Source: Candidatus Hodarchaeota archaeon (lineage in GTDB: Archaea > Asgardarchaeota > Odinarchaeia > Odinarchaeales > JBHLKK01). From it: DNA of 56,727 nt. The stretch is from NCBI GenBank assembly GCA_048886745.1, contig JBHLKK010000004.1, positions 1 to 56,727 of the forward strand. Direction: 5' to 3'. The position numbers and the translations under genes were made by a program. How positions within the stretch are numbered: position 1 is the stretch's first letter; every line of letters begins with the position of its first letter. This document shows, in pieces, positions 1 to 34,053 of the stretch. Under the pieces are notes generated by a model. That model had not been told where the DNA came from. It saw only the letters and a program-made list of their open reading frames with translations, and did not search any database.

Positions 1-720
1 GACAGCAAATAGTTTTGCATTCTTATATTTGAGACTACCTTTCATGGCTCTAAAGAGAGATTTTAGCGGATTTCTGTTTGTTTCTCTTATCGGCAGGTAT
101 GGTCTTTTAACATAACTTTTTGCATACCATAATGCCTGCCGCCATAATCGTTTCCAGTCTCCAGATATGTGTATACTTACTGGAACCGGCATTTGAAGCA
201 TAGGAATACTGTTTTTTCTGTAAATGTGGAACAGATTTAGGTCTCCACCTGCGCCAAAACTGTCATCCCCCCAATGTTTGGTGTGTTCCAAGAACTCCTT
301 TTTACTAAGCAGAACAGCTTCCAGGCCACAGATTTGCTCGGCGCTTCTTTCCATCATATAAAACGATAAAGCGTCAAATGGAGGTTTAAACCAATGCCAA
401 GTTACCCCTTTCAAAACAGCATATCCAGAATCAAGATGTTTGAAAAGAGTCTTAAAAGCGTGTGTAACTATGACATCGCTATCAACTATCATGAAATATT
501 GGCCTTTGGTGAACCAAGCTCCTTGTCTTAGCTTCAGGCTGTATTTAGCTCTGCTCTTCACAATGAAACATTCGTGCTTCTGTGCAATATCAAGTGTATC
601 GTCTTCGCTATAATCATCAATAACAATGATTCTCCCGTACGGAATATGGTTTTTTATACCTCTGATACAAAGGTCTAGTGTTTGTCCACTGTTCTTGGTA
701 GGAATTACTACATCAATCAT
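1..720 (-). CDS. GT2 family glycosyltransferase (3' end runs off the window)
   Basis: Missing from the ORF track. My translation from ATG at 720 gives MIDVVIPTKNSGQTLDLCIRGI...IIVIDDYSEDDT...FMIVDSDV (GT-A DxD motif) and is open to position 1. Confidence 0.88.
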   Translation of the reverse strand, partial: MIDVVIPTKNSGQTLDLCIRGIKNHIPYGRIIVIDDYSEDDTLDIAQKHECFIVKSRAKYSLKLRQGAWFTKGQYFMIVDSDVIVTHAFKTLFKHLDSGYAVLKGVTWHWFKPPFDALSFYMMERSAEQICGLEAVLLSKKEFLEHTKHWGDDSFGAGGDLNLFHIYRKNSIPMLQMPVPVSIHISGDWKRLWRQALWYAKSYVKRPYLPIRETNRNPLKSLFRAMKGSLKYKNAKLFAV

Positions 721-949
721 TAATTCAGGCACCCTTTGGCAAACTGAACATCTTTCATTCGATTCATTAGTATGCATATTCTTTTCACTTATATATGCTG
801 ATAGTTTCGACCCCTTCCTTATATTATTAAATTAGCAACGAATCTATGGGATTATCTTCCATAAGCAAAATGGTCTGTTGTCGACAGGATTAAATATGTT
901 TAAGATTTCAACAGTTAGCGAAATCCTATTGGATAAACCCTACAGGGTG

Positions 950-1189
950 ATGTACGTGAGTGAAATCTCTGATAAGGAAAGAAAGTTTGTCTCTATAAAG
1001 ATTCCAGCTCAGTTATATGAAAGAATAAAGAAAAGACTTAACGAAACGGATTTCTCTTCTGTTTCAGATTATGTAGCATACGTGTTGAGAGAGGTTTTGG
1101 CCAGTTTAGAGGAAGATTATGAGGTGTTTACAGAAGAAGAAGAGAAAAAGGTTAAGGAACGTCTTCGCTCTCTAGGATATTTAGACTGA
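950..1189 (+). CDS. Ribbon-helix-helix (CopG/Arc/MetJ) regulator with C-terminal EEEEKKVKERLRSLGYLD tail
   Basis: FVSIKIPAQLYERIK...SSVSDYVAYVLRE is an RHH pattern. The likely start is ATG 950 or GTG 956 near a GGGTGA SD-like site, rather than TTG 878. Confidence 0.8.
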   Translation: MYVSEISDKERKFVSIKIPAQLYERIKKRLNETDFSSVSDYVAYVLREVLASLEEDYEVFTEEEEKKVKERLRSLGYLD

Positions 1190-1201
1190 GGCGAATTTCA
1201 A

Positions 1202-2359
1202 ATGAGCAAATTGCCGAAACCACATGGTGGTAAACTGATTAATAGGATCCTGAGCAAGACAGCAAGAAAGAAAATAATAAATGAACTTTCCGAATTTGAG
1301 AAAGTAGAAATCTCAAAAGATCTTGCAGTAGATATTGAAAACATTTCAAATGGTGTTTTCAGTCCTCTTGAGGGGCCCCTTAGTAGCGTTGATTTTGACT
1401 CTGTATTACATGAAATGAGACTAGCCAGTGACATTCCTTGGACTATTCCAATAGTATTGGATATATCTTCCAGAATGATTCGAGAAAGGGCTCTAAAACA
1501 AGGTGAAATAGTTATTTTGACTCATCGAAATATGCCGATTTCTCTATTGTATATAGAAGATATTTACGCCTATGACAAGAAGAAGTTCGTGAAGAGAGTA
1601 TTCAAAACCGATGACAGCGATCATCCGGGTGTTGCAAAGATACTGCAATCCGAAGATAGGCTTGTCGGGGGAAAAATAGAGCTAATCAATAATATTGAAA
1701 ATCCTTTTGTACAATACACCCTGAGGCCAATAGAAACCAGAGTTCTCTTTAAGGAAAAGGGTTGGAGAACTGTGGTCGGATTTCAAACAAGGAATGCACC
1801 ACATATGGGACATGAATATGTTCAGAAAACAGCACTGACATTTGTTGATGGGTTATTTATAAATCCTGTAATTGGCAAGAAGAAAGCTGGCGATTTTAAG
1901 GATGAAGTAATTCTAAAAACCTATAGAGAGCTGATTGATTATTACTATTTGAAAGACAAAGCAGTAATGGCAATTCTAAGAACAGAAATGCGTTATGCCG
2001 GACCAAAGGAGGCAATATTCCACGCGATTGTTCGAAAGAATTTTGGCTGCACACATTTTATCGTCGGGCGAGATCACGCTGGAGTCGGAAAATATTATGG
2101 ACCATATGATTCACAGGAAGTCTTTATGGAATTTTCAGACCTAGGGATATCGCCTATCTTTTTCAAGGAATTTCACTTTTGCAGGAAATGTCTTGGTTAT
2201 GTTAGTGCTCAAATATGTCCTCACAGCGGTAATGACGTGATTCGTCCAAGTGGGACCAAAATTCGACGAATGCTAATGCGTCGAGAAATACCTCCCAAAG
2301 AAATGATTAGGTCCGAGGTCGCGGAGATAATTCTCAAAACGAGTAAACCTTTTATTTAA
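1202..2359 (+). CDS. sat: Sulfate adenylyltransferase (ATP sulfurylase)
   Basis: PHGGKL N-terminus, GFQTRNAPHMGHEY, MRYAGPKEAIFHAIVRKNFGCTHFIVGRDHAG, SGTKIR. Confidence 0.97.
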   Translation: MSKLPKPHGGKLINRILSKTARKKIINELSEFEKVEISKDLAVDIENISNGVFSPLEGPLSSVDFDSVLHEMRLASDIPWTIPIVLDISSRMIRERALKQGEIVILTHRNMPISLLYIEDIYAYDKKKFVKRVFKTDDSDHPGVAKILQSEDRLVGGKIELINNIENPFVQYTLRPIETRVLFKEKGWRTVVGFQTRNAPHMGHEYVQKTALTFVDGLFINPVIGKKKAGDFKDEVILKTYRELIDYYYLKDKAVMAILRTEMRYAGPKEAIFHAIVRKNFGCTHFIVGRDHAGVGKYYGPYDSQEVFMEFSDLGISPIFFKEFHFCRKCLGYVSAQICPHSGNDVIRPSGTKIRRMLMRREIPPKEMIRSEVAEIILKTSKPFI

Positions 2360-2365
2360 TAATCC

Positions 2366-3760
2366 ATGGTGTTCGAATTGGCAGTAGATAAGGTTTTTGT
2401 AATAGGCCTGGATTCTGCATCGCCTGAGCTATTGTTTGATAAATTCATAGATGGAATGCCCAATGTAAGAAGACTTCTAGATAAGTCAATTTACGGACCG
2501 ATGGAGAGTTGCATACCTGCAATTACAATACCCGCTTGGATGGTTATGGCTACTGGGAAGACTCCTGGCGAATTAGGACTATACGGATTCCGTCACAGAA
2601 AGATGGGTACTTATAACAAAGTTTGGATCGCACAAAGAAAGCTGATCAAAGAAAAAGCAATTTGGGACTATCTAGGTGAAAAACGTTTGAAATCGGTTTT
2701 GGTGGGAATACCACCCTCATACCCCCCAAGACCTATCAATGGTTGTCTTATCTCATGCTTCATAACACCTGATGCATCTGTTAATTACACTTATCCTGTG
2801 GATTTGAAACAAGAAATCAAATCGCTAGTTGGCGATTACATATTTGACGTAACTTATCGTAAAGAAGAACGTGGAGAAGTATTGGACGATATTTTGGAGA
2901 TGACTAAGCAACATTTCGAAGTTGTTCGATATCTGGCTGAAGAAAAGGAGTGGAGCTACTTCGAATTTGTAGAGATTGGCCTTGATCGACTACATCATGC
3001 GTTTTGGAGATATTTTGATGAAATGCATCATCTGCACGTAGCTGATGCCAAATATAAGAACGTTATTCGGGACTACTACTGGTTGCTCGATAGGGAAATA
3101 GGTTCTATTATTAAATCTCTAGATGGTGATACTGCTGTAATTATAGTTTCGGATCATGGGATAAAACGAATGAAAGGCGCTTTTGCTATTAATCAGTGGC
3201 TTATTGAGAGAGGTCTGCTGAAAATAAGAAATCCCAAGATTCTCAGAACCAAAAAGCAAGTCAGATTCGAAGATCTTGACGTTGATTGGGGCTCGACTGT
3301 GGCTTGGGCGTGGGGAGGTTATTACTCACGAGTCTTTCTCAATATTGAGGGCCGAGAGCCAAAGGGCATAATAACTCAAAATGAATATGAAGAAGTAAAG
3401 AATGAAATCGCAGACCAGATAAAGCAAATAACAGGACCCAATGGTGAGAGATGGGATACCGCAGTTTATTATCCGGACAGCATATATCCTAGGGCTATTG
3501 GTGACAAACCAGATATGATGGTTTATTTGGACAATCTATCGTGGCGTGCTGCAGGAACTCTGGGATACGACTCAGACTACCTGTCTGAAAATGATTTAGG
3601 TCCAGATGACGCGGTTCATTCAAGATACGGCGTCTTTGCTATACATACACCTGAGATGGATTCCTCAAAGCCTACATCGATTTCGATATACGACTACGCA
3701 CCAACCGTCTTGAGTTTGTTTAATATTAAAGAGGAATTTCGGGGGAAGAGCATTATATGA
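2366..3760 (+). CDS. Alkaline-phosphatase-superfamily protein (nucleotide pyrophosphatase/COG3379-like, Thr nucleophile)
   Basis: VIGLDSA, ESCIPAITIPAW, DRLHHAFW, IVSDHG, DDAVHSRYG. Confidence 0.9.
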   Translation: MVFELAVDKVFVIGLDSASPELLFDKFIDGMPNVRRLLDKSIYGPMESCIPAITIPAWMVMATGKTPGELGLYGFRHRKMGTYNKVWIAQRKLIKEKAIWDYLGEKRLKSVLVGIPPSYPPRPINGCLISCFITPDASVNYTYPVDLKQEIKSLVGDYIFDVTYRKEERGEVLDDILEMTKQHFEVVRYLAEEKEWSYFEFVEIGLDRLHHAFWRYFDEMHHLHVADAKYKNVIRDYYWLLDREIGSIIKSLDGDTAVIIVSDHGIKRMKGAFAINQWLIERGLLKIRNPKILRTKKQVRFEDLDVDWGSTVAWAWGGYYSRVFLNIEGREPKGIITQNEYEEVKNEIADQIKQITGPNGERWDTAVYYPDSIYPRAIGDKPDMMVYLDNLSWRAAGTLGYDSDYLSENDLGPDDAVHSRYGVFAIHTPEMDSSKPTSISIYDYAPTVLSLFNIKEEFRGKSII

Positions 3761-4275
3761 GCTTTGTAATCTGGTTAACAGGACCTAGTGGTGCTGGTAA
3801 AACAGTGTTAGCCGATACTCTGGAAAGGAGACTCAAAGGAGTGGGCTACCGGGCAGAAGTTTTGGATGGAGATATGGTGCGTCATAAGTTGTATCCCGAC
3901 ATAGGTTTCAGCAAGGAAGCTAGAAGAATGCATAACAGAGTGGTCATTCACATGGCAAAACTACTCTCCAGAAATGGAGTTATTGTTATTATATCCTTAA
4001 TATCTCCATATCGTGAAATCCGAGACTATGCTCGTCAGGAGCTTTCCAGATTTATCGAAGTATATCTCAAATGTCCTCTTGATGTAAGAATACAAAGAGA
4101 TCCCAAGGGACTTTATGCGAAGGCTATAAGTGGTGAAATCAAGGGTCTCACAGGTTATGATGGTGCTTACGAAGAACCGGAGAATCCAGAAGTGATTTTG
4201 GATACTCATAAGATGAGTGTTGATCAAGAAGCAGATCTTGTAATAGGCAAAGCAACAGAATTCGGCTATCTCTGA
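3757..4275 (+). CDS. cysC: Adenylylsulfate (APS) kinase
   Basis: IWLTGPSGAGKT P-loop, LDGD, SLISPYR, RDPKGLY, YEEPENPE. Overlaps the upstream stop (ATGA), consistent with translational coupling. Confidence 0.96.
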   Translation: MSFVIWLTGPSGAGKTVLADTLERRLKGVGYRAEVLDGDMVRHKLYPDIGFSKEARRMHNRVVIHMAKLLSRNGVIVIISLISPYREIRDYARQELSRFIEVYLKCPLDVRIQRDPKGLYAKAISGEIKGLTGYDGAYEEPENPEVILDTHKMSVDQEADLVIGKATEFGYL

Positions 4276-4295
4276 GATGTGAGAAGCCTATTCTT

Positions 4296-5411
4296 TCAAC
4301 CAAAAACAGCTTCCTTTAGAATCTCAAAATATTTTCTTGAAAGATTCTTCCAATCGTATTCAGTGGCTAGCTTTAAAGCAGCTTTTCCAAGTCGTCCTGC
4401 AAGCTTCTCATCAGACAACACCTTAGTAATCGCACCTGGTATCTCCTTTGGGGTACTTACTAAGAATGCATTCTCGTTATGTCTAAATCCCTCCAGCTCA
4501 AGATACCCCCTAAAACCAATCACCGGTCGGCCGCAAGCGCACCATTCCCAGATTTTCAATGCACCGCCATTAAATGGCAGAATACAAACGTCCGCTAATC
4601 TTACATAGCGAGGAATCTCCTCATGAGGTAGCGCCCCTGTAATAATGACTTGCTTATCAACATTGAGTCTCTTTGCCAGTTTTCTAATGCGATGAACATC
4701 ATCACCATCACCGACAAGTAGCAAGTAAAGGTCTGAAATCTTTTTGGAGGCTGTCTTTAAAGCATAAACAAGCCTAGATAGACTATACATCTTGGCGATT
4801 TTTCCATGATAAAAAGCAATTTTTCCCCTTATACCGAGTTTTTCTTTTAACTCATCGATCTCCTTTCTATGCGCAGAAGAAGGAGGCGTGAAAAGCGTGT
4901 TATCTACACCATCAGAGATTGCCGTAACTTTCTCTTTGCCAAAACCTTGCCTAAGTAGTTGATGTCTAAGTCCGACAAAGTTTGTAATAACTCTGTCAGC
5001 TTTTCTCAAAATTGTATTCTCAAGAAAACGAACTGTAATATACTTCAGTTTTTGATTTCTCCTGAAGTATTCAAAAGCAGGACTGCCGATTAGCGCATCT
5101 CCCCAATCTGCCACCCAAGGAATTTCTCCGATTTTACCAACCAAATATCCAATAGGTGCCATATACGGGAAGTATGTCAAGATTAAGTCCACATCTTTCC
5201 GCTGTCTTACAGACTTAACTATGTTTTTGAGGATGGCCAAACCATAACCGGCGTAGTATCCAAGTTGACGGGACGGAATAATCTTCTTATTTTCGATTTC
5301 TGCTCCCATTTTCTCAAAGTAACTGTTAAAAATCGTCCAACGAGCAGTTGGTTGATGAATCTTACCGTGTCTTAACACCCATGTTTCAGTACTGTAGCAA
5401 ACTATTCTCAT
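4296..5411 (-). CDS. GT4 family glycosyltransferase
   Basis: GT-B pattern: ISDGVD, FYHGKI, LLLVGDG, ITGALPHEEIPRYVRLADVCILP, ACGRPVI. Confidence 0.9.
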   Translation of the reverse strand: MRIVCYSTETWVLRHGKIHQPTARWTIFNSYFEKMGAEIENKKIIPSRQLGYYAGYGLAILKNIVKSVRQRKDVDLILTYFPYMAPIGYLVGKIGEIPWVADWGDALIGSPAFEYFRRNQKLKYITVRFLENTILRKADRVITNFVGLRHQLLRQGFGKEKVTAISDGVDNTLFTPPSSAHRKEIDELKEKLGIRGKIAFYHGKIAKMYSLSRLVYALKTASKKISDLYLLLVGDGDDVHRIRKLAKRLNVDKQVIITGALPHEEIPRYVRLADVCILPFNGGALKIWEWCACGRPVIGFRGYLELEGFRHNENAFLVSTPKEIPGAITKVLSDEKLAGRLGKAALKLATEYDWKNLSRKYFEILKEAVFG

Positions 5412-13632: not shown

Positions 13633-13977
13633 ACAACCACTTCATTTTAGAGATAATTGTAGTTAAATCTCTTAACTCTAAAAAACCTATTTAAAAATTC
13701 CTGAGGATTCCTTTTGCCTATCTTAGTGAGGCTCATCATTTTTTCTATTAATTACATCCCAAACATCATATTTACGCCCACTTGGAAGAGTACTATATGA
13801 TTGTGCCAATCTACACAGGAATTGGGCTAGACTGGGATATTATCTACTCTCTATTCTACATGCCATTTCATAAACAGAATTTGTGTAAATCGATAAACAT
13901 ATAGGCTACTTTCATTGAAAACAAACTACTTGCATTTTCTATGAGATTCAATCTAAAATTCTGTGGAGTTTGCCTTA

Positions 13978-13995
13978 GGGAAAATTATTTAAGCT
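13978..13995 (+). promoter_or_regulatory. Putative BRE-TATA element of the flippase gene
   Basis: GGGAAAATTATTTAAGC (purine run followed by a TTTA[A/T]A-like box) about 50 nt upstream of ATG 14043. Confidence 0.35.
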
Positions 13996-14042
13996 ATCAC
14001 ATGTTGGTTCTTCCAATATTAATACGTGGTATTACATAACGT

Positions 14043-15515
14043 ATGGGGAAAGTTGTTAAGGTGTCAGAATACAGAGAGTTCGCAAAAAACATCGGGACAA
14101 CTGCTATTGGGCAAATGTTGGTATATTTAGGCGGGATTCTGTTATTACTAATGCTAACAAAGACTCTAGGTGCAGGGGACTATGGTTTATGGGTGCAGGT
14201 TGAGGTTACCGTTTCTCTTCTAACAATTATATCGGGGCTTGGATTACCTTATGCGCTAAATCGCTTTCTTGTCTCCGAGAGAGATCCAAATAAGGTTAGA
14301 GACATATTTTATTCTACAGTTTCATTTACACTTGCATCAACAATACTTTTATCGATTTTCTTATTCATTTTTTCCTCTAGCTTCGCAAATTTGTTCTTTG
14401 ATGGAAATCAGGAAGTGGTTTTAATCGCTGCAATCATTGCCCCTATACGGGCATTGTGGTGGTCATATCTTAATTATTTTAGGGCCTTCCGTGAAATGGA
14501 TAGGTACACTCTCATAACGGTTTCTCAGAGATACGGTGTTATTGTCTTGAGCTCTCTTTTTATCTTCGTAGGATATGGTTTAATCGGCGTTGTTTCCACT
14601 TTGATCATATCTTACACGGCCACGCTGCTGATTTTGGCATATTTGGTAATAAGACGTATCGGGCTAGAAAAACCTGCATTCGTTGGATTAGGAAAACGAT
14701 TGAGATTTAGCCTACCTGCTGTGCCAGGTGCACTATCTTTTTGGGTAGTAGATGTAAGTGATCGTTACGTTATAGGAGCATTATTGGGCGCCGTTTTTTT
14801 AGGATACTACTCTTCCGCATACGTCATTGGAAGCATTTCTATTTTTGCTAGCTCCATTTTAGGTTTAATTCTCATTTCAACACTCTCAAAACTTTATGAT
14901 GAAGGAAAAATGACTGAACTCAAAAACCATATGACTTATTCCCTAAAGCTTTTCTTGATGGTGAGTATTCCTCTAATATTCGGAAATATGGCGCTATCCA
15001 AACCTATACTAACAGTCTTATCGACAGCTGAAATTGCGAATTATGGCTACATGGTGGCAACAGTCACTTCCATAGGAACAGTGTTCTTCGGCGTACAAAG
15101 TATCTTTGCTCAAATATTGGTTGTAGTGAAAAAGACTGAGATAGTTGCATCAATATGGGGAATTTCCGCTTTGGTGAATCTAGCGCTTGCATTGAGCTTA
15201 GTGGTATTTCTGGGCGTCATAGGGGCAGCAATAGCCACTTTAACCTCGTACCTCATAGCGTGCTTTCTTACCACCTACTTCTCATCGAAAATACTTACCT
15301 TCGAAATAGATCTAAAATTCATCGCGAAATGCATTCTCTCTTCACTTGTTATGTATGGGGTTATCTCTCTATTCTCTCCAATTGGAGCCGTACAAACATT
15401 TCTTGTAATCCTTTTTGGAGTAGGGATATATTTCTTCATGCTAATCGTTTTTAGAGGATTTAAAAAGGGAGAAATTAACTTTGTCAAAAACCTGGTTAAG
15501 TCGCTGGGACGATAG
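14043..15515 (+). CDS. Oligosaccharide flippase (Wzx/AglR-like, MOP superfamily)
   Basis: About 14 hydrophobic segments, LTKTLGAGDYGL, LRFSLPAVP, VSDRYVIGALLG...LGYYSSAY, GAAIATL. Confidence 0.92.
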   Translation: MGKVVKVSEYREFAKNIGTTAIGQMLVYLGGILLLLMLTKTLGAGDYGLWVQVEVTVSLLTIISGLGLPYALNRFLVSERDPNKVRDIFYSTVSFTLASTILLSIFLFIFSSSFANLFFDGNQEVVLIAAIIAPIRALWWSYLNYFRAFREMDRYTLITVSQRYGVIVLSSLFIFVGYGLIGVVSTLIISYTATLLILAYLVIRRIGLEKPAFVGLGKRLRFSLPAVPGALSFWVVDVSDRYVIGALLGAVFLGYYSSAYVIGSISIFASSILGLILISTLSKLYDEGKMTELKNHMTYSLKLFLMVSIPLIFGNMALSKPILTVLSTAEIANYGYMVATVTSIGTVFFGVQSIFAQILVVVKKTEIVASIWGISALVNLALALSLVVFLGVIGAAIATLTSYLIACFLTTYFSSKILTFEIDLKFIAKCILSSLVMYGVISLFSPIGAVQTFLVILFGVGIYFFMLIVFRGFKKGEINFVKNLVKSLGR

Positions 15516-18342: not shown

Positions 18343-20811
18343 TTAAGACGCAGGATGTGTCTCAACCTTATAAATGTTGACTTCAAGGTTTTGAAATATT
18401 CTTGATACATTGTAGTAAGGTGCAATACTCTCAATGTCAAATATGACAGGATCATTGAATTTAATAAATATGAAAATGCTTCCCGCTTTATCATCGAATG
18501 TAGCATCGAGATATTCAATCAATTCGTAGGATTCTGAGAAATACATTACAGTCGGTTTGATCACTAATGCACACAGGGTTTTATAGGGGGTTTTTTGGTG
18601 CCAATCCCCCCATGCAGGCGTCTCAAAATTAGGTGCGAATATTATTGCATCTGCTCCCAAATAGCTATTAACCCAATTTATCCCCTCACCCATAGGAACG
18701 CTCACAATAGTATTAATTGGATGATTACTCCACGCTTCTATTGAATGCCCATAAGAAACATACGAAATAGATAACAGAAGGATGACAGAAGCCGGTCTCA
18801 GGTAGCCTAGTACCTTATATATTTTGCTACTCGCATGAAAAATGTCAGTCTTAATCGAATCTAATTTTATGGCTGCAAACATGATTAACGGTATGTCTAT
18901 TCTTGATAAGAGCCTATGAGTCCACAGATTCCGCCAGAAGATTGCTGGGAGAAATACACCCAGAAGCGATAACAATAATAAAGCTGCGATAAATGCAATT
19001 ACAATCCCAAGCCCATTCCTGTAATTTCTTAATGGTATCCCTGCTATAATGCCTATTGGTACCATTGCATTGACTACATACCACCAAGATGGCATTATTG
19101 CATATATGTCTACGTTTATATTAGGAAGATTTAACTGACCAAGAAAATAGGCCAGTAATGCGGCGATTATAGCCAGAAAAATAATCGCGGATGAGATTAT
19201 GCGAATTGTTACATCCTCAACCTTAGGTAACCAACTATGAATCTTCTGTCCAATAGACTTGAATTTGGGTATAATACTATCCTTCATTATTACAAAGAAA
19301 ATTCCCACATCCATAATAATGAAGAATACGGGAATAAGCCATAAGGCAGAATAAGAGAACTGCAGTTGTGAAACTCTGAGCCAAACATATTTCGCTAAAA
19401 AGAATTTATAGAGTGGCTCCAATGCTAACGTAAGAAGTACTGATGCGACTAAGACCTTTGAAAACCCCTTCAATCGCTTCTTATATAGAGAAAGAATTAG
19501 TAACGAACATAGTAAAATTGCAGTTTCCATAATGTTGTGTGAATATAAGGATACGCCTGCAAATAAGGCAGTCAAGAGGAGATTTATGGCACTATTACCC
19601 ATTTTATTGAGATAACGGTAGCCAAAAACAATCCCGAAAATAACTAGGGATAAAGTAAACAGATGTCCGTAAACGGTGAACAACATTCCTCCTGCCCCGT
19701 AAGAAGTCAAAAGATCGAATTTGTTTGTTGATGTTGTGTATAACGCTAGAATCTGAGTATTGGTAAATATATTATACAAGAAGTAGACAGAAGATATCTT
19801 TCCCATTAGTAGAATTAGTAATGCATAATAAGGAGTTTTAGTATTTTTTGGAAATAGCGTTTTTATTAGCACATATATTGAAAGAAATAACAGTATGGAA
19901 TAATACTGTAACGCCGCATATACATAGAGCATTGGAATGTATGCGACACGGCTTACGATGTAAAAGAAAAGTGGAAAACCCAAATATGGCTCCCATGTCA
20001 CATCAGAAACAGCAAAATTATTTGCAATTCTCATATACTCGTAAACATCCCACCTTGTATACCCTCCCAAAGGTCCTGGAACTGATATAACGTAGTAAGA
20101 AGTAACCATTACTACAGTCAGTATGACAAAAGTTAGTAAATGTAGATTAAAACTGACAGGATTACATTTTCTACTAGCATTAGACTTCTGTAGATATCTA
20201 TTCTTCTTTAAAGTTCTAAACCTCAGAGAACTGATCGTCGCTATTAGAATCCATAACCCGATCACATAGGTCAAAGGTGTTAAGACACCAGTTGTGACTA
20301 GAAATGTCCCCATAACATTACTGATGCAATAGCTCAAAGCCAGAGATACACCGATTTTTCCAAGTCTGTCCAAACCCCAGCTCCTCAAAAAGTATTCAAC
20401 GATCAAATAACCCGGCGCAAAAGTAGTCAGAAAACAGGCTGAAACTAATTCAAATAATTGTAAAGGGCTCATAAGTATGAATGTCTCAAAAATGTGCTCC
20501 GAGCTTATTGTAACCGGATTTTTTGGCATGAAAACTACAGCTAAACTTGTGATTGCTGTAAAAATAAAAAACAATAAGAGTCTCTTGCTAATATTCATAT
20601 GTAAACTAAATCTATTTCTCAACGGTATTCCGATGTTGAGGAGCAACGTCATAAACAGAACAATGAGAACTATGAAAGTGACTGTAAAGAGAATCTTTAG
20701 GGTCAAGGTGGCGATACCAAAGAATATCAGTAATACCCCTAAAGCTGTACAAATTGAGAAGAGTAAAATTGCGCGGTTCTTCACCTTGTGCACCCCTATG
20801 GCTTTTGTCAC
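18343..20811 (-). CDS. Large polytopic membrane protein, possibly GT-C/polymerase-like
   Basis: 822 aa, many hydrophobic helices, a loop RWDVYEYM...PYLGFPLFFY and a small soluble C-terminal domain. Lies directly downstream of a GT2 gene. Confidence 0.6.
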   Translation of the reverse strand: MTKAIGVHKVKNRAILLFSICTALGVLLIFFGIATLTLKILFTVTFIVLIVLFMTLLLNIGIPLRNRFSLHMNISKRLLLFFIFTAITSLAVVFMPKNPVTISSEHIFETFILMSPLQLFELVSACFLTTFAPGYLIVEYFLRSWGLDRLGKIGVSLALSYCISNVMGTFLVTTGVLTPLTYVIGLWILIATISSLRFRTLKKNRYLQKSNASRKCNPVSFNLHLLTFVILTVVMVTSYYVISVPGPLGGYTRWDVYEYMRIANNFAVSDVTWEPYLGFPLFFYIVSRVAYIPMLYVYAALQYYSILLFLSIYVLIKTLFPKNTKTPYYALLILLMGKISSVYFLYNIFTNTQILALYTTSTNKFDLLTSYGAGGMLFTVYGHLFTLSLVIFGIVFGYRYLNKMGNSAINLLLTALFAGVSLYSHNIMETAILLCSLLILSLYKKRLKGFSKVLVASVLLTLALEPLYKFFLAKYVWLRVSQLQFSYSALWLIPVFFIIMDVGIFFVIMKDSIIPKFKSIGQKIHSWLPKVEDVTIRIISSAIIFLAIIAALLAYFLGQLNLPNINVDIYAIMPSWWYVVNAMVPIGIIAGIPLRNYRNGLGIVIAFIAALLLLSLLGVFLPAIFWRNLWTHRLLSRIDIPLIMFAAIKLDSIKTDIFHASSKIYKVLGYLRPASVILLLSISYVSYGHSIEAWSNHPINTIVSVPMGEGINWVNSYLGADAIIFAPNFETPAWGDWHQKTPYKTLCALVIKPTVMYFSESYELIEYLDATFDDKAGSIFIFIKFNDPVIFDIESIAPYYNVSRIFQNLEVNIYKVETHPAS

Positions 20812-30284: not shown

Positions 30285-31667
30285 GTGCTTATAACTATTG
30301 ACTGTCTCAGATACGATATTACAAACTCACTTATTGAAAAGAAAAAAATACCCAATATTCAGAGACTTGCGACGAAGGGTTTATTCTTTAAGAGGGCTAT
30401 TTCCACTGCGCCTTGGACCGTTCCATCTGTGAAGTCATTTTTAACCTCTACATATCCACTTATGTATGATGGATATGTCAACTTCTCACCAAGAAAATCC
30501 TTTGTCCGTCTGTTGAGGAAGATCGGTTATTCTACAATATCATGTCAAACGAATCCGTGGATTTCAAGATATTTCGGCTTTGATAGAGGATTCTCATCCT
30601 TTATTGATGACAAAAGAGTGGTGTTGCAAAATCTGCTCGCTAAACTGGAGAGAGTCAATCTCAGGAATCGGAATCCATTTTTGTATAGTTCAGGGGCTAT
30701 TGTACGGTTCTTGGTGTGTTTTTTCAGCGCCTTTTTCAATCTATGGCCAAGATTCTGCCTACAATCGGATCAGCTAACTAAGGCAAATTTGGAGCTGATG
30801 AAGAAAAGCAAACCACCACTCTTTGCTTGGCTTCATTATATGGATTGCCACGAACCACACATTCCCAGCAGACCAAATTCATTTACCTCATTTAAATTCG
30901 GTCGAATTCAAAGCAAACTCCTTGAAAATAAGCGACTATCTAAGGACGAAATTCTATGGACTTTGAGTTGGTATAAAGACTCAATAATCCGTGTTGATAA
31001 ATCCATTGGCTTCCTTCTGTCGAAGCTCGAAGGAATGGGCATAAACTTAGGCAATACTTACTTTGTTTTAACAAGCGATCATGGCCAGGAATTCTTTGAG
31101 CATGGAAGATTCGGCCATCTGCTTCATCTTTATGATGAACTGATACGTGTTCCCCTAATCATGGCGGGTCCTGAACTGACGCCAGGAGTTGTTTCGGAGC
31201 AAATGAGCCTCATAGATTTGCCTTCTACAATGCTTGGTCTCTTAGGGTTTTACGAAATGCCTAGGAACTATCTGGGAAGAGATTTAAGCATGTTTCTGAA
31301 AGAATCCAGACCAAATTTTCCCGATAATCCTGCAATCAGTGAGGAAGGAGTTAAGAATCGTGAATCTTTAATGTCATACGATAGATCCAGAATCCTAAAA
31401 TTGGATTTAGGACATCGACGGATATCTTACCGATCTGATGGCTGGAAATACATATACAATGAGAATGCCTCTGATGAGCTATATGATCTTAATAAGGATC
31501 CTGGTGAGCAAATCAATCTTTTTGAAGAAGAAAAGGAATTAGCAAAAGAGTTTCTTGAAAGGATTGATCAACATATAAGAATGGAAGAGAAAACAAAGAT
31601 CAAGCAAAGAGAATATCTAAAAATACGGAGTCTGAGTAACCAATTGGGATCAACACTACGTCTTTGA
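30285..31667 (+). CDS. Sulfatase-like hydrolase/transferase (AlkP superfamily, Thr at the nucleophile position)
   Basis: LITIDCLRYD, APWTVPSV, HYMDCHEPH, TSDHGQEF, LYDELIRVPLI, ELYDLNKDPGE. The true start may lie a few codons upstream. Confidence 0.88.
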   Translation: MLITIDCLRYDITNSLIEKKKIPNIQRLATKGLFFKRAISTAPWTVPSVKSFLTSTYPLMYDGYVNFSPRKSFVRLLRKIGYSTISCQTNPWISRYFGFDRGFSSFIDDKRVVLQNLLAKLERVNLRNRNPFLYSSGAIVRFLVCFFSAFFNLWPRFCLQSDQLTKANLELMKKSKPPLFAWLHYMDCHEPHIPSRPNSFTSFKFGRIQSKLLENKRLSKDEILWTLSWYKDSIIRVDKSIGFLLSKLEGMGINLGNTYFVLTSDHGQEFFEHGRFGHLLHLYDELIRVPLIMAGPELTPGVVSEQMSLIDLPSTMLGLLGFYEMPRNYLGRDLSMFLKESRPNFPDNPAISEEGVKNRESLMSYDRSRILKLDLGHRRISYRSDGWKYIYNENASDELYDLNKDPGEQINLFEEEKELAKEFLERIDQHIRMEEKTKIKQREYLKIRSLSNQLGSTLRL

Positions 31668-33069: not shown

Positions 33070-34053
33070 ATGATGGCTTTAGCATCTTTCTGGTGGTTAT
33101 TTGTCTTACAGTTCGCAGCTGTATTCGCAATGAGTTTTCTCTTTATTCCAACGGCTGGAAAAAAGTTTATGGAAAATGGCTTGTCTGGTATGGATTATCA
33201 CAGGATCAAAGAGACAAAAGTCCCGGAGAGTCTGGGATTGGTTGTTGGAATGATTTTCATTCTATCTACCGTTGCATTTTCGCCACTTCTCGGGATCCAG
33301 GTTAATCTCATCTATACGAGTCTGCTGGCTATTTCATCAGCTCTTCTATTGGGATTTATGGATGATGTTTTAAACATACGCTGGAGGTACAAACTATTGA
33401 TTCCGCTTGTTTCTGCTATACCTCTTATAGTAAATTATGCTGGTGCGACTTCCGTTTCTATTCCTTTTTTCGGTGTTATTGAACTTGGATTAGTCTACAT
33501 GTGGGTGTTAATTCCTTTGATGACCGTTTATATGGCCAACACAATAAACATATATGCTGGGATAAATCTGCTTGAAGTCGGACAATCAATAGTGCTGGGT
33601 GGAACCGTCCTTATCTTGGGCGTTTTAACAGAACAACTTTTTGCTGTTTTCATGATGACGCCGTTCTTAGCAGCTAGCTTTGCCCTGGCCTACTATAATA
33701 AACATCCTGCCAGAGTTTTTGTCGGCAATTCTTATACTTATTTTAGTGGAATGTGTATTATTGTGGCATCTATTTTATCAAATATGGAAAAGATAATCAT
33801 ACTATGTACAATCCCTCAACTTCTAAATTTCGTCTATTCGTTCAAAGATTTTCTGCGGGATTGCCCTCGACACAGGCTTCCTGCTTTTAACAAAGGAACA
33901 GGATTGCTTGAAGATTCACATTATGCTACTCTTCTCAATTTAGTTCTACGTATATTCGGACCGCAAAGCGAAAAACGCCTTGTTTATACTTTGATTTCAG
34001 TCCAAGCAATAATTTCTGTAGCTGTTCTTGCAGGATGGTATTTCCTTCCCTAG
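33070..34053 (+). CDS. aglH: UDP-GlcNAc:dolichol-phosphate GlcNAc-1-P transferase, DPAGT1/Alg7-like
   Basis: VPESLG, LGFMDDVLNIRWRYKL, NTINIYAGINLLEVGQ, PARVFVGN, PQLLNF, CPRHRLP. Confidence 0.9.
   Translation: MMALASFWWLFVLQFAAVFAMSFLFIPTAGKKFMENGLSGMDYHRIKETKVPESLGLVVGMIFILSTVAFSPLLGIQVNLIYTSLLAISSALLLGFMDDVLNIRWRYKLLIPLVSAIPLIVNYAGATSVSIPFFGVIELGLVYMWVLIPLMTVYMANTINIYAGINLLEVGQSIVLGGTVLILGVLTEQLFAVFMMTPFLAASFALAYYNKHPARVFVGNSYTYFSGMCIIVASILSNMEKIIILCTIPQLLNFVYSFKDFLRDCPRHRLPAFNKGTGLLEDSHYATLLNLVLRIFGPQSEKRLVYTLISVQAIISVAVLAGWYFLP

Follow-up and report, generated by a model that had tools for sequence, protein, structure and literature searches.

ATP sulfurylase (Sat) converts ATP and sulfate to APS and PPi, and APS kinase (CysC) converts APS and ATP to PAPS and ADP. 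The equilibrium of the ATP sulfurylase reaction lies far toward the substrates. In eukaryotes, ATPS-pyrophosphatase fusions have been described from diatoms, oomycetes and haptophytes (PMC2275785). The closest archaeal systems come from the Thermococcales. For Thermococcus onnurineus, the listing of cluster TON_1707-1704 gives TON_1705 as an inorganic pyrophosphatase, citing Lee et al. 2009 (PMC4463584), and Table 1 of a second source reports for this enzyme a pH optimum of 9.5, a kcat of 2.1 per s, a Km of 18.8 uM and a kcat/Km of 1.1e5, with a kcat two to four orders below those of the housekeeping PPases tabulated alongside it (PMC9653972). In Pyrococcus yayanosii, cluster PYCH_17520-17560 comprises copG, ATP sulfurylase, a DHH pApase, a type I phosphodiesterase/nucleotide pyrophosphatase and APS kinase; PYCH_17520 is described as a putative copG transcription factor, PPi removal is assigned to PYCH_17550 as a proposal only, and no sulfotransferase was identified in KEGG for this species (PMC8268124).

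This study describes a related module on a whole contig of 56,727 nucleotides (C4, hereafter the window) from an Asgard MAG that is 78% complete. The module is probably the Asgard version of a cluster for sulfate activation already known from other archaea, in which an NPP-type enzyme splits PPi and PAPS is spent by ordinary sulfotransferases. In databases, the gene for this enzyme is labeled only as "alkaline phosphatase family protein"; our analysis assigns it the published function, PPi removal.

Organization and distribution of the module

Four co-directional genes form the module, which sits within a nonulosonic-acid glycan island. These genes and the other features of the window referred to below are as follows:

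1 to 777, minus strand: GT2 glycosyltransferase (PF00535, 52.4 bits), oriented away from the module and, at the edge of the contig, essentially complete
950 to 1189, plus strand: RHH/copG-like protein of 79 aa, read from the ATG at 950 (the mechanical ORF begins at TTG 878), 67-69% identical to Thermococcales genes
1202 to 2359, plus strand: sat, ATP sulfurylase of 385 aa (PF01747, PUA_2, NF003166, TIGR00339)
2366 to 3760, plus strand: NPP-type PF01663 AlkP-superfamily metalloenzyme of 464 aa (P0001), orthologue of TON_1705 and PYCH_17550
3757 to 4275, plus strand: cysC, APS kinase of 172 aa (PF01583, TIGR00455)
4296 to 5411, minus strand: GT4 glycosyltransferase (PF00534, 81.4 bits), convergent with cysC
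30285 to 31667: sulfatase-family AlkP-superfamily protein, on the same contig as the module

The RHH/copG-like gene ends 12 nt upstream of sat. The TAA stop of sat is followed, after 6 nt (taatcc), by the ATG of the AlkP gene, whose own stop overlaps the cysC start in an ATGA at 3757-3760. The tight coupling of sat, AlkP and cysC between glycosyltransferase genes, as described in a first-pass annotation of this DNA, was therefore seen again, as were both the GT2 and the GT4 flank. Neither the RHH gene nor the sulfatase-family protein figured in that annotation. The GT4 neighbor recurs in two related loci (L007 and L030), with 74-89% identity.

The same annotation had read the operon as a source of PAPS, and the assignments behind this reading proved strong. 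Sat matched PF01747 at 286.6 bits and PUA_2 at 159.8 bits, as well as NCBIfam NF003166 (503.5 bits, cut-off 387) and TIGR00339 (377.3, cut-off 322.95); CysC matched PF01583 at 192.9 bits and TIGR00455 at 227.5 bits (cut-off 138.7). Both proteins thus exceed curated NCBIfam equivalog or subfamily cut-offs. Its statement that the window holds no P-loop sulfotransferase, PAPS reductase or sulfite reductase also stood: none was matched among the contig ORFs scanned individually up to ~34.9 kb, and the whole-genome searches for these families returned no match on the contig. We considered whether contig C31, which carries sulfotransferase genes, abuts the start of the window and splits the GT2 gene. 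This arrangement was rejected, as the GT2 homolog of the closest relative (L030:5435-6211), at 258 aa, matches the window ORF in length and this relative shows no sulfotransferase within 10 kb.

In 19 of 22 related loci and in 31 of 34 orthologue-bearing Asgard genomes, the AlkP gene immediately precedes cysC, and the sat-AlkP-cysC arrangement is therefore not due to chance. An RHH homolog accompanies the module in 17/22 loci. In the Asgard modules (the window, L007, L009, L020, L030 and L031), no DHH gene lies between sat and AlkP, and a DHH gene is present in the modules of Thermococcales, Methanocaldococcus and Archaeoglobi. The Archaeoglobi loci read copG-DHH-AlkP-cysC and hold no sat, and cysC is a closer companion of the AlkP gene than sat is. 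The cluster known from the Thermococcales thus occurs widely among Asgard archaea, in a version that lacks the DHH pAp phosphatase. A literature search on Asgard sulfotransferases and PAPS found nothing relevant, and a published study of sulfate assimilation in ANME archaea names no enzyme of this kind.

The RHH/copG-like protein, a putative regulator of the module by homology, shares 67-69% identity with the small genes upstream of sat in P. yayanosii and T. onnurineus, with matches beginning at positions 977-983. It ends in a near-invariant tail (...KERLRSLGYLD), and alignment revealed K69, R71, L72, L75, G76 and Y77 to be invariant. A tail of the form ...RLRALGYLD is carried by the RHH protein and often also by CysC. 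Structure prediction of a complex between the AlkP enzyme and the copG-like protein, run without controls, gave a median of 0.30 against a mark of 0.32.

Family, fold and orthology of the NPP-type enzyme

Thr-nucleophile enzymes of the AlkP superfamily include the group transferases LtaS and EptA. The sole Pfam match of P0001 at E <= 0.01 was PF01663, with 150 bits (cut-off 23). Accordingly, it matches neither PF00685 nor PF13469, the sulfotransferase domains, nor PF00884, which in LtaS and EptA is combined with an N-terminal multi-pass membrane domain. In an alignment of 18 sequences, D16, T54, D207, H211, D263, H264 and H418 were invariant; the metal ligands were assigned by correspondence of motifs (GLDS, DRLHH, SDHG and AVHS) rather than by superposition. 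Across phyla, members of the family share 62-84% identity and about 100 invariant positions, among them many family-specific Arg and Trp residues.

The AlphaFold2 model of P0001 has a pLDDT of 85.1, and its best PDB matches were ENPP1/3 and the Xanthomonas (Xac) NPP, with a probability of 1.00; against NPP structures, Foldseek returned an E-value of 3e-15 and TM-scores of 0.51-0.67. The structures nearest to P0001 are thus NPPs and not sulfatase folds of the Agl30/Agl31 type. The catalytic beta-strand begins at residue 9, and no membrane segment is seen in the model. A direct sequence search against the PDB returned nothing at E 0.01, and the one match of a profile search, to PhnA, was weak. 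It places T54 in the nucleophile column of PhnA, where the two deposited phosphonoacetate hydrolase sequences differ by Thr versus Ala.

Orthology to the Thermococcales proteins is clear from sequence and locus. P0001 shares 65% identity with ACJ17195.1 of T. onnurineus NA1 (301/461 residues, covering 461 of 464; 629 bits) and 67% with P. yayanosii P0042 (PYCH_17550). ACJ17195.1 was identified as TON_1705 by its neighbors copG, sat, DHH, cysC and TauE, an order that matches the published listing of TON_1707-1704 (PMC4463584), and the P0042 locus matches PYCH_17520-17560 (PMC8268124). In the phylogenetic tree, P0001, TON_1705 and PYCH_17550 fall into one clade of 12 rows with support of 100/99 and short branches, and the 525-545-aa AlkP2 paralogues and the sulfatase-like protein of the window lie outside it. 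The pyrophosphatase activity of TON_1705, which three papers treat as biochemically characterized, reportedly goes back to Lee et al. 2009, J Bacteriol 191:3415.

Probable pyrophosphate removal, PAPS use and competing readings

Hydrolysis of PPi by the window protein is likely, as judged from its orthologue TON_1705. Sat would form APS and PPi from ATP and sulfate. The NPP-fold enzyme, predicted to be a soluble cytoplasmic two-metal hydrolase with Thr54 as nucleophile, would split the PPi and pull the Sat reaction forward, so that the unfavorable ATP sulfurylase step could proceed. CysC would then phosphorylate APS to PAPS, which would most likely be used by two P-loop sulfotransferases encoded on contig C31, sulfating surface glycans. 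We infer the in vivo PPi role of P0001, the passage of PAPS to glycans and the identity of the enzyme that recycles PAP. In favor of the PPi role, the host itself has a membrane H+-PPase, with no soluble family I or II enzyme found. Searches of its genome and two others (G001 and G002) detected no family I PPase (PF00719). This does not make the AlkP enzyme the sole pyrophosphatase, as all three genomes have either a membrane H+-PPase or a family II PPase.

The first-pass annotation had proposed the AlkP-fold protein as the sulfo-transfer step, on the premise that no canonical sulfotransferase was available. Genome-wide, this premise fails. Two PF13469/PF00685 P-loop sulfotransferases carrying a GxSGT(T/F) motif, at L006:389-1450 and L006:4764-5579, are encoded on contig C31 in a second glycan cluster, with a Wzx flippase, DegT and others as neighbors, and the host genome needs no unorthodox sulfotransferase. 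A genome search for sulfotransferases and cysH/sir gave a divided outcome, recovering these two proteins on the one hand and, on the other, no NIR_SIR sulfite reductase in the 78%-complete genome and a single PAPS_reduct-domain protein, a PUA-PAPS_reduct-2x Fer4 fusion. With canonical sulfotransferases on C31 and no sulfite reductase found, it is plausible that PAPS serves glycan sulfation through ordinary enzymes. The earlier preference for glycan sulfation over assimilation holds up in this setting, given also the surrounding glycan island.

Several observations count against the PPi reading, namely the low kcat of TON_1705, the tighter linkage of the gene to cysC, the sat-less Archaeoglobi loci and a conservation (62-84% identity) unusually high for a hydrolase of a small substrate. 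The full reading also has to contend with the many hosts that show no recognizable sulfotransferase as PAPS consumer: 21/34 module-bearing Asgard genomes have no PF13469 match, and neither PF13469 nor PF00685 was found in Ca. Asgardarchaeum abyssi or Methanocaldococcus sp. 16A. NPP-family enzymes are generally broad pyrophosphate and phosphodiester hydrolases, and a promiscuous NPP could be splitting PPi merely as a side activity.

This breadth bears on an alternative that we regard as unlikely, in which the protein serves the PAPS pathway as an accessory hydrolase with PPi as neither its sole nor its main substrate, removing the 3'-phosphate of PAP or cleaving the phosphosulfate bond of APS or PAPS to control the pool. 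PAP removal would be needed in the Asgard modules, which lack the DHH pApase, and tblastn recovered no homolog of the Thermococcales pApase from the host genome; the tight linkage to cysC and the low PPase kcat tabulated for TON_1705 (PMC9653972) point the same way. However, the DHH pApase and the AlkP enzyme are both retained where they co-occur and so are not redundant. Comparison of DHH-less with DHH-containing modules found no alignment column separating their AlkP proteins, and there is thus no sign of a specificity switch. Additionally, further pApase candidates of the host are a DHH-DHHA1 protein encoded on C100 and an IMPase-family protein on C24; HMM searches detected three DHH-family proteins, none of them assignable to the pApase. 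It would also be futile for one operon to encode both the synthesis and the hydrolysis of APS or PAPS. The first-pass annotation had named PAP/APS recycling as its own alternative to sulfo-transfer; an accessory pathway hydrolase comes nearer the mark, although the reported substrate of TON_1705 is PPi rather than PAP or APS.

Very unlikely, in our estimation, is a reading in which PPi hydrolysis by TON_1705 is a side activity and the family acts on APS or PAPS, for example by using Thr54 to hand on a sulfuryl or adenylyl group, with the invariant Tyr of the tail on the RHH protein, and often on CysC, as a conceivable acceptor. If true, it would explain the linkage to cysC rather than sat, the strong conservation across phyla, and the missing classical sulfotransferase in most module-bearing Asgard genomes, in Ca. 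Asgardarchaeum abyssi and in Methanocaldococcus sp. 16A.

Least credible is the proposal of a non-canonical sulfotransferase in which Thr54 would receive the sulfuryl group from PAPS (or APS) before its transfer to a glycan, a lipid or a protein. It draws on Agl30 and Agl31 of Halobacterium salinarum, sulfatase-like proteins that are needed for N-glycan sulfation and confer sulfation on Haloferax volcanii (PMC11980604), on the many module-bearing genomes without a P-loop sulfotransferase, and on the constant company of cysC and an RHH protein with an invariant Tyr-containing tail. Against it stand the PPi hydrolysis listed for an orthologue with 65% identity (PMC4463584; PMC9653972, Table 1), the placement of Agl30/Agl31 in the sulfatase branch (PF00884) rather than with the NPPs, where the PF01663-only match puts P0001, the canonical sulfotransferases of the host and of T. 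onnurineus, in the latter adjoining the module at a distance of three genes, the lack of the membrane domain or acceptor-binding module that sets LtaS and EptA apart, and the fact that all nearest solved structures are hydrolases. The sulfatase-like protein at 30285-31667 is the better analogue of Agl30/Agl31 on this contig.

The reading of the enzyme as a PPi hydrolase of sulfate activation corrects a tempting over-interpretation. PPi removal in sulfate activation is already published, and its extension to an Asgard gene is routine annotation. For archaeal glycan sulfation, questions are raised as to the PAPS consumer in hosts without sulfotransferases and the role of the LGY tail of the RHH protein. 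The Agl30/Agl31 precedent further raises the question of what role is played by the 525-545-aa AlkP paralogues and by the sulfatase-like Thr-nucleophile proteins encoded near the modules.

Comparison with described systems

With the Xanthomonas NPP, ENPP1/3/5 and PhnA, P0001 shares the fold and the bimetal, Thr-nucleophile core. It differs in that identity is only 11-14%, the FPNH that follows the nucleophile is replaced by IPAW, and the protein is cytoplasmic, without a signal peptide. Agl30 and Agl31 of H. salinarum likewise belong to the AlkP superfamily and indicate that this superfamily can supply archaeal glycan sulfotransferases; however, by their nearest structures, the sulfatases 5G2U and 6HHM, they fall in the sulfatase branch and not in the NPP branch (PMC11980604).

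At the level of the pathway, the eukaryotic ATPS-PPase fusions resemble the module in physically linking a PPi-removing activity to sulfate activation (PMC2275785), although a conventional PPase is fused there and a separate NPP-family gene serves here. The locus of Methanothermococcus thermolithotrophicus similarly combines stand-alone ATPS and APSK with an accessory phosphoesterase, a DHH-type PAP phosphatase. Its PAPS, in contrast, is assimilated by way of a PAPS reductase and Fsr, and the text of the paper contains no phosphodiesterase or alkaline-phosphatase-family gene (PMC10322725).

The P. yayanosii CH1 cluster PYCH_17520-17560 follows the same module logic, and its copG-like protein has the same tail; unlike the window locus, it has a DHH pApase and TauE, and it carries a 545-aa AlkP paralogue where T. 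onnurineus has a sulfotransferase. Unlike the window locus, the T. onnurineus cluster TON_1704-TON_1707 has a DHH pAp phosphatase (TON_1706) separating sat from the NPP-type gene, a TauE-like transporter after cysC and a canonical sulfotransferase three genes on; the sulfotransferases of the window's genome lie on another contig. The Thermococcales-type DHH pApase, TauE and the T. onnurineus-type sulfotransferase gave no match in that genome (tblastn, E 1e-3). All four shared genes nevertheless belong to the same families in the same order (copG, sat, ..., NPP-type, cysC), and both clusters abut glycan-biosynthesis genes (flippase, DegT and epimerases).

Module genes and identity of the AlkP-fold protein

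The window spans the whole of the 56.7-kb contig C4, which belongs to a 1.75-Mb MAG (78% complete) whose closest relatives are Asgard archaea labeled Promethearchaeota or Hodarchaeota. Its sulfate-activation module and flanks comprise the following genes.

Genes of the module and its flanks (window coordinates)
1-777, minus strand: GT2, flanking the module
950-1189, plus strand: copG-like ribbon-helix-helix (RHH) gene, 79 aa, 12 nt upstream of sat
1202-2359, plus strand: sat, family score far over the curated cut-off
2366-3760, plus strand: AlkP-fold gene (protein P0001), family score far over the curated cut-off
3757-4275, plus strand: cysC, family score far over the curated cut-off
4296-5411, minus strand: GT4, flanking the module

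The ORF coordinates, the 6-nt spacer between sat and the AlkP gene, the ATGA overlap of the AlkP stop with the cysC start, and the GT2 and GT4 flanks all agree with the first-pass annotation, which overlooked the RHH gene, a part of the same unit. Its statement that neither a P-loop sulfotransferase nor a reductase of PAPS or sulfite is recognizable in the window was likewise borne out: none was detected among the window ORFs scanned (to ~34.9 kb), and whole-genome searches for these three families gave no match on contig C4.

The P0001 family is very tightly conserved, with 62-84% identity to proteins from other Asgard archaea, Methanocaldococcus, Methanotorris, Pyrococcus, Geoglobus, Archaeoglobus, Ferroglobus and Korarchaeum. 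In Pyrococcus yayanosii CH1, the homolog (P0042) is preceded by a 73-aa small gene, ATP sulfurylase and the pAp phosphatase gene DHH, and followed by APS kinase and TauE. This neighborhood reproduces the PYCH_17520-17560 cluster, in which PYCH_17550 is named as a type I phosphodiesterase/nucleotide pyrophosphatase with a proposed role in PPi breakdown (PMC8268124). The Thermococcus onnurineus NA1 homolog (P0139, ACJ17195.1) lies between DHH and APS kinase, downstream of sat, a position matching TON_1705 in the gene list of PMC4463584; that list gives TON_1707 as ATPS, TON_1706 as PAP phosphatase, TON_1705 as pyrophosphatase and TON_1704 as APS kinase. TON_1705 is tabulated as a PPase with a pH optimum of 9.5, a kcat of 2.1 per s and a Km of 18.8 uM (PMC9653972), and both papers cite Lee et al. 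2009. P0001 is 65% identical to P0139 across 461 residues, and the maximum-likelihood tree places P0001, TON_1705 and PYCH_17550 in one short-branched clade (support 100/99); the longer AlkP paralogues fall outside it, as does the sulfatase-like protein of the window. The earlier proposal that the AlkP-fold enzyme is a sulfotransferase is not supported, since this orthologue shares clade and synteny and has been characterized as a pyrophosphatase.

Residues D16, T54, D207, H211, D263, H264 and H418 are invariant among 18 aligned members, as is typical of the two-metal site of NPP enzymes, in which Thr is the nucleophile. T54 aligns with the sole column (Thr vs Ala) separating the two deposited phosphonoacetate hydrolase sequences; this column is the PhnA nucleophile. 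The AlphaFold model was confident (pLDDT 85, pTM 0.88), and in the PDB it matched ENPP1, ENPP3, ENPP5 and Xanthomonas NPP best, with sequence identities of 11-14%. Neither a signal peptide nor a membrane domain was found in P0001, and a Pfam scan gave no match to PF00884, to which LtaS, EptA and true sulfatases belong.

Distribution of the module and removal of PPi

The 22 related loci show three arrangements: copG-sat-DHH-AlkP-cysC-TauE in Thermococcales and Methanocaldococcus; copG-DHH-AlkP-cysC in Archaeoglobi, with sat not at the locus; and copG-sat-AlkP-cysC in Asgard archaea, at times followed by a second copG and TauE. In 19 of the 22, cysC directly follows AlkP, and no alignment column sets the AlkP proteins encoded in DHH-less modules apart from the rest. 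Between Asgard archaea, Thermococcales, Methanococcales, Archaeoglobales and Korarchaeota, the NPP-type protein and its module retain 62-86% identity, with branch lengths in the protein tree far below organismal distances; evidently, horizontal transfer has carried the complete module between archaea, of which many are thermophiles.

Of 121 evenly sampled Asgard genomes, 34 contained the AlkP orthologue (E <= 1e-115), and cysC was the next gene in 31 of these. In families f4 and f14, the APS-kinase domain occurs in ORFs of ~576-586 aa, probably sat-cysC fusions, and the NPP-type orthologue is missing (0/9 and 0/3); genomes of this type encode many PF13469 sulfotransferases. The phylum therefore contains two alternative set-ups for sulfate activation.

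Sat yields APS and PPi in a reaction whose equilibrium lies far toward the substrates, and PPi removal is the standard means of pulling it. Searches of the window's genome found a membrane H+-PPase, whereas soluble PPases of families I and II were not detected. A dedicated PPi hydrolase that is soluble and translated together with Sat and CysC would therefore make sense. ATPS-pyrophosphatase fusions are found in some eukaryotes (PMC2275785).

For PAP recycling, one candidate is a DHH-DHHA1 protein on contig C100, and another is an IMPase-family protein on contig C24, adjoining a divergent APS-kinase-like gene and an APH-like phosphotransferase.

Candidate pair on contig C24 (locus L033)
3104-3928, minus strand: IMPase-family protein (PF00459, 115.9 bits)
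3941-4498, minus strand: second, divergent APS-kinase-like protein (PF01583, 107.5 bits)

Further copies of this kinase paralogue occur in Asgard genomes without the PAPS module. The two proteins may form a pAp phosphatase pair of the CysQ type, or else a nucleotide kinase/phosphatase pair unrelated to it.

Wider roles and other AlkP-superfamily proteins

There is a small probability that P0001 acts beyond PPi hydrolysis. Pointing this way are the low kcat of TON_1705 relative to housekeeping PPases in the table of PMC9653972, the unusually high conservation of the NPP-type family, and the tie of its gene to cysC even where sat lies elsewhere. PF13469 is unmatched in 21 of the 34 module-bearing Asgard genomes, the two other genomes of the same genus among them, and both PF13469 and PF00685 are lacking in Ca. 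Asgardarchaeum abyssi and Methanocaldococcus sp. 16A. The RHH protein ends in a tail near-invariant across phyla (acidic-basic, ...EEEKVKERLRALGYLD), with K69, R71, L72, L75, G76 and Y77 invariant in 15 aligned sequences (Asgard, Thermococcales, Methanocaldococcus, Archaeoglobi and a Eubacteriales MAG); CysC of these modules often ends in ELGYL (L008, L009, L013, L020, L023, L025, L030), and that of the window in ATEFGYL. AlkP-superfamily glycan sulfotransferases also exist: Halobacterium salinarum has two that are sulfatase-like, Agl30 and Agl31 (PMC11980604). However, none of these points outweighs the direct biochemistry tabulated for the 65%-identical syntenic orthologue TON_1705.

Other AlkP-superfamily proteins
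Window 30285-31667, plus strand: sulfatase-family protein, 460 aa (PF00884, 110.8 bits)
L032:11703-13280 and 13693-15279, Asgard genome G040: 525-545-aa AlkP paralogue (PF01663 plus SGSH_C-like C-terminus)
L025:10386-12023, P. yayanosii: same paralogue
L010:568-2145, Methanocaldococcus sp. 16A: same paralogue

The 460-aa protein shares 91% identity with a 'sulfatase-like hydrolase/transferase' from Hodarchaeota, and its gene lies ~1.4 kb upstream of a DPAGT1/AglH-like GT (33070-34053). It lacks the C/S-x-P-x-R formylglycine motif; its T-V-P-S-V aligns with S-S-P-H-R of arylsulfatase 8DI0, and its nucleophile is therefore probably Thr. Given the Agl30/Agl31 precedent (PMC11980604), it is a better candidate for an unorthodox sulfotransferase in the window than the NPP-type enzyme.

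The 525-545-aa paralogue keeps the Asp/Thr/His core and recurs beside the PAPS module, but was not detected in the genome of the window. Its P. yayanosii copy stands at the site of the canonical sulfotransferase of T. onnurineus, and in Asgard genus g25, where PF13469 is absent (0/6 genomes), two tandem copies lie directly upstream of sat. It is not exclusive of sulfotransferases, as both occur together in three genomes (G032, G043, G060).

Fate of PAPS

The premise that canonical sulfotransferases are lacking failed at the genome level, where two were found on contig C31.

Canonical P-loop sulfotransferases on contig C31 (locus L006)
389-1450, minus strand: 353 aa (PF13469, 68 bits), SGT(T/F) PAPS-binding loop
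4764-5579, minus strand: 271 aa (PF13469, 42.9 bits), SGT(T/F) PAPS-binding loop

The surrounding glycan cluster encodes a Wzx-type flippase, methyltransferase, WbmS-like, radical SAM and FemAB-like proteins, AsnB (asparagine synthase) and a DegT aminotransferase. Between the sulfotransferases lies a 530-aa ORF without a Pfam family (L006:3185-4777); another ORF of 530 aa, likewise with no Pfam match, lies near the module in L031. An 822-aa ORF in the window's glycan island (18343-20811, minus strand), between a methyltransferase and a GT2, likewise matches no Pfam family at E 0.01.

Whole-genome search of the 78%-complete MAG detected no NIR_SIR sulfite reductase. The only PAPS_reduct-domain (ATP-PPase-like) protein found is a 669-aa PUA-PAPS_reduct-2x Fer4 fusion with two 4Fe-4S ferredoxin motifs (contig C10, L005:778-2787, minus strand), whose PUA domain suggests an RNA-related role over sulfate assimilation. 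The window itself bears a pseudaminic-acid-type nonulosonate cluster (NeuB, CMP-transferase, DegT, dehydratases, flippase). Taken with the C31 enzymes and the T. onnurineus sulfotransferase, these observations make glycan sulfation by ordinary sulfotransferases the economical reading of PAPS use. The first-pass interpretation remains plausible as to PAPS for glycans, given two canonical sulfotransferases and no NIR_SIR detected, and is not supported as to the AlkP enzyme, given its orthology to TON_1705.

The window locus is an Asgard, DHH-less member of an already known archaeal sulfate-activation cluster. The T. onnurineus module has a canonical sulfotransferase three genes away, whereas in the window's genome the sulfotransferases reside on the separate contig C31.
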